Assembly (NCBI GenBank): GCA_963815195.1
Contig: CAWFGE010000014.1
Span: forward strand, 141,097-205,096
Reading direction: 5' to 3'
Length of the DNA: 64,000 nt
Source of the DNA: an uncultured Planctomycetaceae bacterium
Lineage (GTDB): Bacteria > Planctomycetota > Planctomycetia > Planctomycetales > Planctomycetaceae
Shown here: positions 60,779 through 64,000 of the stretch, piece after piece
How positions within the stretch are numbered: position 1 is the first letter of the stretch
Layout of the letters: the number at the start of each line of letters is the position of its first letter
Notes under the pieces: generated by a model
What the model was told of the DNA's origin: nothing
Seen by the model: the letters and a program-made list of their open reading frames with translations, nothing else
Databases searched by the model: none
Program-made: the position numbers and the translations under genes

Positions 60779-61213
60779 TCAAGCCTCAGGTGGGGTTTTC
60801 TGGTCCTTTGAGCGTTTGGCTTGCTTATTTTCCGGGCAGTTTTTCTCCGCGGATTTCTCGCCCTGGACCCGGTGGGCACTTTGGCCGGTTTTGGGGCTTT
60901 GATTCCCCGTCTGCGTTTGGCCGGTTTTGGCGTCCCGTTTGGGCTTCTTTTCTTGGTTGGTTTTGGTGTCCTGGGGAGTCGTTTCCTCCGCGTCGCTTTT
61001 CTCTGCGGTTTTGTTGCGAAGGCGGTAGCTTTGGCCGGTGATCTGGATGATCTCGGCGTGTTCCAGGAAGCGATCCAAGATTGCGGTCGCGGCGGGAACA
61101 TCGCCGATAAGCTTGCCCCAATCTTGTAACGGTCTGTTGGAAGTCATCATCGTGCTTTTGACTTCGTGCCGGCGGAGGATGATCTCGAACAAACATTCCC
61201 CGCTTCGCTTGGG
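60779..61213 (-). pseudogene. istB: IstB ATPase, 3' half
   Basis: 'PKRSGECLFEIILRRHE..STMMTSNRP..WGKLIGDVPAATAILDRFL..ITGQSYR'. Confidence 0.85.
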
Positions 61214-61251
61214 TATGTTTCGACATAGTGCTACATCTCTCCAATAAGGGT

Positions 61252-63323
61252 TTAATTTAAGGGTAATTCCTTCTGTCGGCGGTCGGTTGATGGGCTTCGT
61301 TTTCCCGAATGAATGGCTTGGATGGTTCGCTTGACGGCCGGTAATTCCAAATCCTTTCGTTCGATGATCCAGGGTGCGTACTTGACAACTTGTTTGGCCG
61401 GGAGGTGGCCGAGCTTGATCAGGCGGCGAATGGCGGTGAAGCTGACATTTGAGATTTCGGCGGCTTGGCTCAGAGTCAGCCAGTCTTCGCTCTTCCGAAA
61501 ATTCGGTAGCTGGTATTGGTAGCGCACCTGACCGATTCGCGAGGCGATCCACGAGTTTCCCTGGCCCGTTCGATAGCCCAAGCGGTTGAGTATCGAAGCA
61601 ATCGCGCGGTCGTCGCAAACCTTCGAGAGTTCGGTGATCAACTCGCGAACGGTTTGATCGGTCACGCGTCCATGCTTGCCACGCGGGTTCCGGCGGACGA
61701 ACAGTTCGGTATGCACTCCTCCTTGCCAGTGCAAATGCAAATCATGTTGCGGAGGATCGTCTTGGCTGTTGACGACGATTTCGACAAGAACCGTTCGCAA
61801 GATGCGTTTCTTGGTTTCCGCGGATGTGGCGGAGTGGCTCCAGAGTTTCTTCAAGTCCGCCCCCAGTTTGAGCAATTGTTGCCGATCCTGGTCGCTAAGA
61901 ACGGTGACGTGGGAATCCAACTCGGCCAAACGTTTTTCCATCTCCGCCACATGTTTGAGTGCTGCGTTCCATCGTGCTTCGAGTTCCGCCGCCACGAGTC
62001 GGTTATCAGGATCGACCAAGTCGTATTGTTTTTGGGCTCGTCCCGCCTCATACCGAGCTTTCTCTAACGCCAGTTCGAGGGAGCGCCGCTTGTCTTCGTC
62101 TTCATGCAGCACTTGGTCCATCGCGGCGAGGGCGGCTTGGACTCCCGCGGGTTGGATGGCATCCAGAACGGTCTCACTGACCGCTTCATCCAAACGCAGA
62201 CCTCCGATGGCCAAGCAGGGAGCCGAACCGCGATGCGTTCTTCCGCCGCTGCAAACATAGCGCGGCACATTGCCGTCCGCGCCGCCGTACTTGGTAAACA
62301 TCATCCGGCCGCAGCGACCGCAACGCAGCAATCCGGCCAGAAGTGCGGGTCCGGTTTTGGCTGCCCCTCGTGTGGTTCCGTCAGGCATGTTTCGATTCGA
62401 CTCCAAAACCTGTTGATTTTGCAAATACTCTTTCCAAGTGATGTACCCGGGATGGTGATCCAAAATCAAGACTTTCCATTCCTCACGAGGCCGCTTTTTT
62501 CGACCGTTACTCTTCGCGCGGCCGTTCTCGACCACTGTTTGTGAGACCGTCCGTCCCCAGGCAAAAGCTCCCGCATAACACGGATTCTTTAGGATTTGCA
62601 GAATGCGGTGCCGGCCTGGAATATGCTACTGAGTCTCGCGACCCGAGGTGCCGGGGACGGCTTCAGGAAGCCGCAGTTGCTCTTGAGCGTACCAGAGCGC
62701 TGTCTGACGCGCGCTGCCCAGTTCGCGAAACTTGCGAAAGACTCCGCGCAAGGCGTCTTGCACTTGCCGATCGGCAATCATCTCCACCCGATGATCTTCC
62801 GTCTTCACGAAACCCACGGCAGGTTCCCAAAGGATATGACCCCGGCGAACTTTCTGTTCATAGGCGGCTCGGGCACGTTGCCGCAATAGTCCCAGTTCAA
62901 ATTCCGCCAAACTGCCCTTGAGCCCCAACAGCAATCGATCATTGAGTTGCGCGGATCGTAGACGCCGTCTTCATCGATGATTAACGTCTCCGTGATCGCA
63001 CAGAGATCAATCAAGTGATGCCAGTCCCGGTTGTTTCGCGCCAAACGCGAAGCCTCCAAAGCCAGAACGGCCCCCGCTTCGCCTTCGCAGACCGCCGTGA
63101 GCAATCTTGCGAATCCCGGGCGGTCTTGAAGTCCGCTGCCCGAGCGGCCGAGATCATCATCAATCACCGTAACCTTGCGGAACTTGAGCTGCCTGGCGTA
63201 ATCCGCCAGAGCATATTGCCGTTTTTGACCTTCGCGGTGCTCCCGCACTTGGTGATCACTGGATTGCCGGACATAGACAAAAGCGGTTCGCTCTCGGTGT
63301 TCAGATCGAATCTTCTCGTTCAT
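61252..63323 (-). pseudogene. Large serine recombinase (resolvase, recombinase, Zn-ribbon, coiled coil, C-terminal HTH), about 690 aa; frameshift near 62950 and in-frame TAG at 62626-62628 as assembled
   Basis: 'VYVRQSS' catalytic Ser, 'DDDLGRSG..RPGF', 'EASRLARN', 'LKNPCYAG', 'LLRCGRCG', 'DPDNRLVAAELEARWN', 'WLTLSQAA..IRRLI'. Confidence 0.9.
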
Positions 63324-63489
63324 CGACGTTCTCCTGTTGAGATTGAGAGGGGAAGGATTGTTTCAACTGCTGTGTGATTAAACGTTGGCACTCATCGCGG
63401 ACGGCTTGCGGGAGCTTGTCCCACAGATCAAGCCGCGCGAACGCAAACACCTGTTGTTTAGGAGGAGGGTGGACTTCGTTTCGCGGCAT
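63301..63489 (-). CDS. ORF2: 62-aa accessory protein overlapping the recombinase start
   Basis: AGGAG RBS; MPRNEVH..LWDKLPQAVRDECQRLITQQL..; overlaps ORF1 end and recombinase ATG. Confidence 0.55.
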   Translation of the reverse strand: MPRNEVHPPPKQQVFAFARLDLWDKLPQAVRDECQRLITQQLKQSFPSQSQQENVDEREDSI

Positions 63490-63772
63490 GAGGATCTCCT
63501 TGAGGAATTGAGTTTCCCTCAGTCGTAGAGTCTGCCTCCGCGTGAAACAATGGTTGGTGGTCCAGAAGTCGACGAAGCTCAAGCAGAGCCGCGATCCCGA
63601 TTCGCGGATGGTCCGCATCAGGACAATGACCGCAGGCGATGGGATCAAGCATCCAACACGGAATCGCGAGTTGCACATCGTCTCGCAGTCGTACGAGATG
63701 ATGAGCCGCATCAAATCGGCGAACGACCTCGACCTCTTCGCCATAGAAAGCGTGATAACGATAGCAGATCAT
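63458..63772 (-). CDS. ORF1: small accessory protein (resembles Y4bD/DUF5372-type 'YHxxxG..IPxWM.D..C' proteins found before such recombinases)
   Basis: MICYRYHAFYGEEVEV..LAIPCWMLDPIAC..ALLELRRLLD; frame stays open upstream to the element boundary. Confidence 0.6.
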   Translation of the reverse strand: MICYRYHAFYGEEVEVVRRFDAAHHLVRLRDDVQLAIPCWMLDPIACGHCPDADHPRIGIAALLELRRLLDHQPLFHAEADSTTEGNSIPQGDPHAAKRSPPSS

Positions 63773-63810
63773 TACTCGGGGCGATTCATGAGCAGTGTGT
63801 TGATGGATAG

Positions 63811-64000
63811 GGGCAATTGTTTCATGCCCATGTCGTCGATGATCAACAGGTCGGGCTTGAGGTATCGCATCAACGTTTTGTCATCGCCATCGAACGCGGC
63901 CTCGTGCAGGAAGTCGCGGACCACGTCGAAGATCGAACGGTAGAGCACCGAAAAGCCCGCCTTGATCGCGCTGCGGCCCACGGCCTGGCAGCAATGGCTC
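63811..64000 (-). pseudogene. istB: IstB ATPase, central part up to Walker B; 5' end outside window
   Basis: 'SHCCQAVGRSAIKAGFSVLYR..YLKPDLLIIDDMGMKQLP'. Confidence 0.85.

Follow-up and report, generated by a model that had tools for sequence, protein, structure and literature searches.

Can integration of a mobile element take apart one of the element's own genes, so that its start codon and coding sequence meet again only when the two ends of the element are joined? The question is raised by a locus in a 64,000-nucleotide stretch of DNA from an uncultured Planctomycetaceae bacterium (the window; GenBank assembly GCA_963815195.1, contig CAWFGE010000014.1). There, an element of 2,603 bp, read on the minus strand at window positions 61211-63813, splits the istB gene of an insertion sequence (IS) of the IS21 family. 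It carries two small open reading frames (ORFs), ORF1 and ORF2, followed by a gene for a large serine recombinase. A first-pass annotation, made from the sequence alone, had proposed that a ribosome-binding site and an ATG at one end join in frame to ORF1 at the other end upon excision, recombination thereby acting as a switch. Our analysis makes it probable that this is an IS-like serine-recombinase element with its attachment site (attP) inside the 5' end of ORF1, and that full-length ORF1 would be encoded only by the joined ends. Comparison across the family shows the anatomy of this predicted split gene and its conservation. We infer that ORF1 would be made only from the joined form, acting with the recombinase as a sensor of the state of the element, and that circles would form and the ORF across their junction would be translated.

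The element in istB and its joined ends

The ends of the element are exact, as established by three comparisons. The Pfam IstB_IS21 match is broken between profile positions 167 and 171, stopping at window base 63814 and resuming at 61210. A related, uninterrupted istB on another contig of the same genome (C23) provides an empty site, continuous across the insertion point. Finally, a contig from a public run of an unrelated study (X1) joins base 61210 to 63811, skipping 2,600 bases, with three ambiguous letters. This agrees with the 2,600-bp excised form that had been proposed. The window sequence and the empty-site comparison leave CCC as the sole sequence common to both junctions. CCC, the empty site and the 2,600-bp skip together indicate conservative insertion at a short shared core, with no target duplication beyond the core. 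Since only CCC is common to both junctions, the circle junction is the same wherever the crossover falls within it. The features of the locus are as follows, in the direction of reading.

63814..64000, minus strand: 5' part of the interrupted istB (IS21 helper ATPase); Pfam IstB_IS21 profile 107-167, E 2.6e-9; runs off the end of the window and of the contig
63811..63813, minus strand: CCC, left junction (attL), predicted to hold the crossover dinucleotide; from flank comparison and the public contig joint of 61210 to 63811
63773..63810, minus strand: left-end leader, 38 nt, putative P' arm of attP; open in the ORF1 frame, giving residues 6-18 of the junction extension, including an H-T-A-H motif
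63458..63772, minus strand: ORF1 body, 104 aa from the internal ATG; predicted SH3-like barrel and helices, predicted distant DUF5372 relative
63301..63489, minus strand: ORF2, 62 aa, with its own AAGGAGA ribosome-binding site; overlaps the end of ORF1 and the start of the recombinase gene
61252..63323, minus strand: large serine recombinase gene, broken; Pfam Resolvase, Recombinase, Zn_ribbon_recom and HTH_17
61237..61242, minus strand: Shine-Dalgarno-like GGAGAG, 10 nt upstream of the right-end ATG
61224..61226, minus strand: right-end ATG, predicted start of full-length ORF1 after end joining; from sequence and family conservation
61211..61213, minus strand: CCC, right junction (attR), second copy of the shared core; from flank comparison, the empty site and the public contig
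60779..61210, minus strand: 3' part of the interrupted istB; Pfam IstB_IS21 profile 171-236, E 8e-19

The recombinase has the domain composition of a large serine recombinase, with matches to PF00239, PF07508 and PF13408 spread over three fragments and a C-terminal HTH_17. This last domain (window 61252-61500, minus strand; E 2.4e-6) is excisionase-like, and an HTH_17 at the C terminus is unusual among large serine recombinases.

The architecture proposed for the joined ends could be confirmed to the base. At the right end, the recombinase stop codon (61254-61252) is followed by the Shine-Dalgarno (SD)-like GGAGAG (61242-61237), 10 nt, the ATG (61226-61224), 13 nt counted from its first base, and CCC (61213-61211). 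The left end reads CCC (63813-63811), 38 nt and the ORF1 ATG at 63772. Joining through one CCC gives 13 + 3 + 38 = 54 nt that contain no stop and place the right-end ATG in frame with ORF1. In the integrated element, the same ATG reads out of the istB phase, as had been noted, over a frame of 133 codons (ORF 60825-61244, minus strand); a junk protein from the 3' part of istB could come from the right-end SD and ATG of every integrated copy. A single such junction is not beyond chance, one frame in three being the right one and the other frames also being often open. The significance of the junction in the window therefore comes from its relatives.

In the mechanism that we propose, the 2.6-kb element would have entered istB of the IS21-family element by conservative site-specific recombination. 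ORF1 would have its ribosome-binding site, its start codon and some five codons at the right end, after the recombinase stop, and the rest of its sequence at the left end; the crossover dinucleotide would follow the first base of the start codon by 14-15 nt. Integration would sever ORF1 from its translation start, and end joining, in an excised circle or a head-to-tail pair, would restore it. In the circle, the three genes, coupled to one another, would close into a ring. ORF2 and the recombinase gene would remain translatable in either state because they keep start signals of their own, so that only ORF1 would depend on joining. Together with the recombinase, ORF1 would then sense the state of the element, favouring re-integration or boosting expression from the circle.

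The junction among relatives of the element

Homologues of ORF1 were found in related genomes, in 118 stretches of species-representative genomes, in at least 466 stretches from metagenomes and on 99 plasmids, most of them rhizobial; 80 of the genome stretches and 80 of the metagenome stretches were kept for study. A word-index protein search for the family returned only two matches. The recombinases encoded beside these homologues are 40-60% identical to the window recombinase, and 35 of them are intact, with lengths of 651-697 aa (the family is roughly 690 aa). Many ORF1 matches lie on contigs of 2.6-2.7 kb in which ORF1 begins near base 44, and contigs of this length are the mark of a multicopy element of that size.

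The family always sits inside conserved motifs of genes of other mobile elements, in either orientation. Flank translations match IstB_IS21 (at two sites) and IS66 transposase (also at two sites), further targets being IS66 Orf2, split at profile positions 60|63, the end of the rve integrase core and the RHSFATH region of tyrosine recombinases. At the level of motifs (loci L022-L101), these correspond to the Walker A and C-terminal regions of IstB, IS66 TnpB, two sites in IS66 TnpC, the end of the rve core and RHSFATH. By eye, the right arm of the element resembles the left arm of the target. Because insertion occurs in either orientation, ORF1 cannot rely on translation of the target gene.

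Every element interrupts a conserved gene, and its length modulo three can therefore be read from the codon phases of that target gene on either side. Phases were determined by comparing six-frame translations of flank segments across loci with blastp; matches of more than 85% identity were discarded, and no crossover position was assumed. Both phases were obtained for 32 loci, 30 of which have their flanks on one strand (2 were discordant) and 29 of which have a motif-defined start. Of these 29 usable loci, 28 have the conserved start and ORF1 in the same frame across the junction, as do 17 of the 18 in which both flanks are confidently phased. When the target frame was restored by hand in seven target classes, the core dinucleotide fell at +14/+15 from the first base of the start codon. 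This rule was tested on 51 distinct loci from the genome and metagenome collections, where the dinucleotide recurs before the ORF1 anchor in 48, at 38 nt (35 loci), 41 nt (10) or 44 nt (3), while other offsets score 0-9. The three left-end lengths differ by multiples of three, and the frame is kept. Moreover, all 38 distinct junctions are open in the frame of the start codon, compared with 11 and 21 of the 38 in the other two frames. Frame continuity across attP is thus non-random among relatives, as the phased loci and the dinucleotide offset both indicate.

Four other procedures were tried and set aside. A junction search by dyad symmetry and core identity alone was too noisy per locus, with frame classes of 23, 16 and 12. 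Flank phases taken from open frames alone were unusable in GC-rich DNA and were replaced by the cross-locus blastp. A lenient test, accepting any ATG or GTG and five offsets, gave in-frame solutions for 40/41 genome and 17/24 metagenome loci, with out-of-frame controls reaching up to 14/41 and 17/24. A regular-expression test solved only 10/29 metagenome loci, because its motif missed a GTTATTATG variant and because five loci have a further gene after the recombinase gene.

The translation signals at the right end are conserved as well. Every subfamily has a start codon here, some 16 bases before the end and a short distance past the recombinase stop. In a Verrucomicrobia group this codon is an in-frame GTG; elsewhere it is ATG. 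SD-like pairing upstream of this codon has a median of -7.1 kcal/mol, versus -3.1 kcal/mol in control windows, and reaches -6 kcal/mol or below in 62% of the 39 distinct right ends versus 14% of controls. The terminal SD and start codon are kept across subfamilies whose recombinases are only about 40% identical. In an acidobacterial subfamily, the recombinase stop overlaps the right-end start, as ATGA or TAATG. As for the left end, the codon aligned to the internal ATG of the window is almost never a start codon in relatives. An in-frame ATG inside the element occurs in 1 of 74 distinct left ends, that of the window, and in 1 of 59 metagenome left ends, so that homologues do not start at the internal ATG (it is absent from 73/74 and 58/59, respectively). 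In 33 of the 74 distinct left ends, there is no possible start before the upstream stop. Continuity of the frame, conservation of the terminal SD and ATG, and use of the internal ATG had been set beforehand as the three points on which the switch reading could fail, and all three analyses were run.

These conserved features might nevertheless have been produced by attP alone. In this alternative, which we regard as unlikely, the right-end ATG and the open leader are parts of inverted half-sites, and translation of ORF1 goes on whatever the state of the element, using an internal or non-canonical start, or transcripts that come in from the flank. By eye, the left-end leader and the right end form an imperfect inverted repeat, and the start codon mirrors the in-frame H-x-A-H codons on the other side of the crossover, as attP half-sites would. 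Because the start and H-x-A-H lie in these half-sites, recombinase binding alone could preserve the distance between them and, with it, the frame. The leader of 18 residues is also poorly conserved, varying about equally at codon positions 1, 2 and 3 (23, 31 and 36 variable sites), and some in-frame ATG, GTG or TTG is found inside the element in 26 of the 74 distinct left ends, the Bradyrhizobium group having a GTG at the anchor codon. Yet the frame is open far past the attP of about 50 bp, up to a conserved Tyr, with indels of only +3 and +6 nt, and it is the start frame that is open in all 38 junctions, compared with 11 and 21 for the two other frames. SD-like pairing precedes the right-end start, and no comparable purine-rich motif was noticed by eye in the left arm. 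The overlap of recombinase stop and start codon in one subfamily, and the left ends without any possible start when integrated, argue in the same direction; for most integrated copies there is no other start to use.

Other observations likewise weigh against a gene completed only by end joining. One phased locus, L076, is out of frame, with a left-flank score of only 37 bits, and no in-frame junction was found in 5 of 51 genome loci, three of them cut by a contig end and two (L030 and L086) unexplained. Since the loci are relatives of one another, in about seven target classes, the counts given above overstate their independence. In two groups, no SD stands beside the proposed start, that of Verrucomicrobia and that of Bradyrhizobium, the latter having an upstream in-frame ATG instead. 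To these must be added the leader variation, the in-frame codons of the left ends and the possible constraint by recombinase binding, as well as the state of the window copy and the searches for joined forms described below.

The window copy and the joined form

Five copies of the element are present in the genome, all at one istB site and with the same upstream flank, and hence they are not independent insertions. Two are full-length, the window copy and C21:188-2791. Two near-identical copies, C19:267012-269122 and C18:29475-30453, are truncated at element bases 2110 and 978, respectively, and C16:87061-88511, which is 84% identical, is truncated at element base 1444. The five copies appear to have increased in number as passengers within a larger repeat.

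The recombinase gene of the window copy is broken by a 1-nt deletion near 62950, where the other copies and the public X1 contig carry the base. In addition, an in-frame TAG at 62628-62626 is found in all near-identical copies, the diverged C16 copy having a Trp codon there, and no copy in the genome has a whole recombinase frame. The window copy is therefore a defective relic and its recombinase gene a pseudogene, so that the switch in the window cannot operate unaided. Neither this defect nor the fact that the internal ATG at 63772 is peculiar to the window copy was part of the first-pass annotation. Its reading of recombination as a switch is supported at the level of the family, where none of the three adverse outcomes named above occurred.

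For this copy, with its dead recombinase and an internal ATG of its own, another explanation has to be weighed. The truncated istB frame enters the element and stops at a TAA that overlaps the ORF1 ATG at 63772 (TAATG; ORF 63772-63999), and ORF1 might be translated while integrated, by re-initiation after the truncated istB, the element being a domesticated or decaying passenger of IS21. In its favour, the ATG is unique among the 74 left ends, the recombinase is broken in every near-identical copy and all five copies occupy one istB site. However, this codon specifies Thr instead of Met in the diverged C16 paralogue, which lies at the same istB site. This explanation, which we find distinctly improbable, concerns the window copy alone, and it is compatible with end joining as the source of full-length ORF1 in the family.

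A search for RNA runs turned up none. Joined forms were sought directly, in DNA. No circle ("go back") joint was found in four public runs, searched at the level of contigs only, and in none of the 80 metagenome loci does the 3' end of a recombinase gene lie directly upstream of ORF1. These results, too, count among the points against excision-dependent assembly of the gene. That the gene is completed in head-to-tail tandems, or by recombination between two copies, instead of in a free circle is highly improbable: any joining of right to left end gives the identical ORF, and sequence cannot distinguish these forms, but no tandem copies were found in the 80 genome and 80 metagenome loci, and known large-serine-recombinase transposons reportedly move through circles (Lyras and Rood 2000).

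The surroundings of the element show some further features. Upstream, only 187-188 bases of istB are present, followed by a repeat of about 1.3 kb that lies beyond the end of the window. This repeat is found at C18:30641-31954 and in six further places in the genome; three contigs end exactly at its start, and the diverged C16 copy has it at the identical point. On the other side, the 3' fragment of IstB (window 60779-61000, minus strand) runs on past the Pfam domain into a long low-complexity tail rich in Lys, Pro and Gln.

The encoded proteins and known systems

ORF1 is a real protein, given its widespread homologues, the scores of some relatives at or near the DUF5372 threshold and the confidence of its AlphaFold2 model. 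Against a DUF5372 (PF17342) cut-off of 25 bits, relative L044 scores 26.1 and passes, L025 scores 24.1 and further relatives score 19, 15 and 14 bits. ORF1 of the window gives no DUF5372 match at E values up to 1; it is homologous to the scoring relatives and itself below threshold, and on this sequence relationship it is a predicted distant relative of DUF5372. Pfam gave no match for ORF1 or ORF2 of the window, and NCBIfam none for six ORF1 proteins. The AlphaFold2 model, with a mean predicted local distance difference test (pLDDT) score of 82.6, consists of a small SH3- or KOW-like barrel followed by helices. A Foldseek search with this model returned no match at E 0.001 or better, giving only short SH3 matches at E 0.3-1.5. 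The best VIA-align matches were to KOW/SH3-like barrels over residues 1-45, with Z 5.0-5.3, a level rated as common by the tool.

DUF5372 genes are often unannotated, because they have no start codon when integrated. In the plasmid search, many ORF1 matches carry no annotated feature at all. On a Bradyrhizobium barranii plasmid (L182; NZ_CP088281.1, 37124-44423), ORF2 and the recombinase gene are annotated and ORF1 is unlisted, in a feature table that omits pseudogenes.

ORF2 is kept throughout the family as a protein of 55-70 aa that begins with basic residues, contains a Leu-rich helix and closes with an acidic tail. An SD of its own precedes it in most cases, and its stop codon overlaps the start of the recombinase gene. 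Metagenome loci L105, L124, L127 and L148 have an extra ORF, whose ATG overlaps the recombinase stop and whose product begins M-A-A-V-R-L-S-R-L. Its sequence suggests a larger variant of the element with a putative fourth gene and a different right end.

A role for ORF1 in directionality or targeting, which the first-pass annotation had raised as a possibility, was approached by modeling ORF1 with the recombinase. For the pair from locus L022, the modeled contact scored 0.60, the best of three controls scoring 0.00. The mark for this score is reached by 116 of 157 solved complexes and by 2 of 215 mismatched pairs, scores of 0.60 or less comprising only 18 of the 157 solved complexes together with both of the passing mismatches. 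Agreement between runs extends to at least 91% of contacts, and the partner has a pLDDT of at least 70. The model hints that ORF1 may contact the recombinase.

Several known systems offer partial parallels. Tn4451/Tn4453 are reportedly large serine recombinase transposons with a circular intermediate. In these clostridial elements, whose recombinase is TnpX, the joined ends form a promoter for the recombinase gene that is absent when the element is integrated. The present family is similar in being small, in encoding a large serine recombinase and in having an expression signal created by end joining (in a circle that is predicted here). In contrast to Tn4451/Tn4453, the junction would unite an SD and a start codon with the body of an accessory gene while the recombinase gene keeps its own start, and target choice and accessory genes differ. 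Joining the ends of the window element was not found to unite -35 and -10 boxes or to set a promoter before the recombinase gene, and a scan of 61150-63900 for sigma-70-like promoters found 0 sites, in a host whose promoter type may fall outside the scan.

In mycobacteriophages with integration-dependent immunity, attP lies in the repressor gene, and integration trims its 3' end, giving a stable and active repressor. There, as here, the position of attP within a gene makes the product depend on the state of integration. In our family, unlike in these phages, integration removes the 5' start and the product should be lost.

Circles of IS911-type insertion sequences have promoters at their junction. 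According to PMC13023037, the promoters Pcirc of ICEclc and P3'end of ICEKp1 are end signals that drive a gene at the other end only after excision. The common principle is that a signal at one end acts on a gene at the other after joining. Whereas the promoters of ICEclc, ICEKp1 and IS911-type elements concern transcription of an integrase or transposase gene, here the coding sequence itself would be assembled, and the gene is not that of the recombinase.

The closest parallel to a gene split by integration is found in archaea. SSV-type "suicidal" tyrosine integrases (SSV1, pTN3, pT26-2) have attP in element coding sequence, so that the gene is whole only in the circular form, and SSV-type recombinases are called exclusively archaeal, as stated in PMC8371274. 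The likeness lies in an attP within an element gene that integration splits. Unlike in the SSV type, where attP lies in the gene of the tyrosine recombinase itself, the recombinase is a bacterial serine recombinase whose gene integration leaves unsplit. It is in the 5' end of ORF1 that attP is placed, and this accessory gene would lose its first five or so codons and its translation signals.

A literature search, not covering subscription journals, found no account of this family or of the split accessory gene, and no paper mentioning "DUF5372". Known before are excision-dependent promoters (Tn4451, ICEclc, IS circles) and integration-split archaeal tyrosine integrases; new here is a bacterial serine-recombinase element that would split off the translation start of an accessory gene, in a layout kept across several phyla. 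In that it inserts into motifs conserved in IS21, IS66, IS3-like and tyrosine-recombinase genes, the family is a parasite of other mobile elements. On a more tentative view, these elements may be widespread serine-recombinase "IS hunters" that use an attP-split gene as a sensor of their state: a DUF5372-like protein, made from the circle only, in which the three genes would be translationally coupled in a closed ring, would bind the recombinase and set its direction or its capture of targets, for example by opposing ORF2 as an excision factor, so that the element quickly re-integrates into a motif conserved in a gene of another mobile element and ORF1 then switches itself off. If the ORF1 protein does set the direction of recombination, the family would provide a new and very compact one-way serine integrase that works without outside regulation, which would be of interest for the integrases used in genome engineering.

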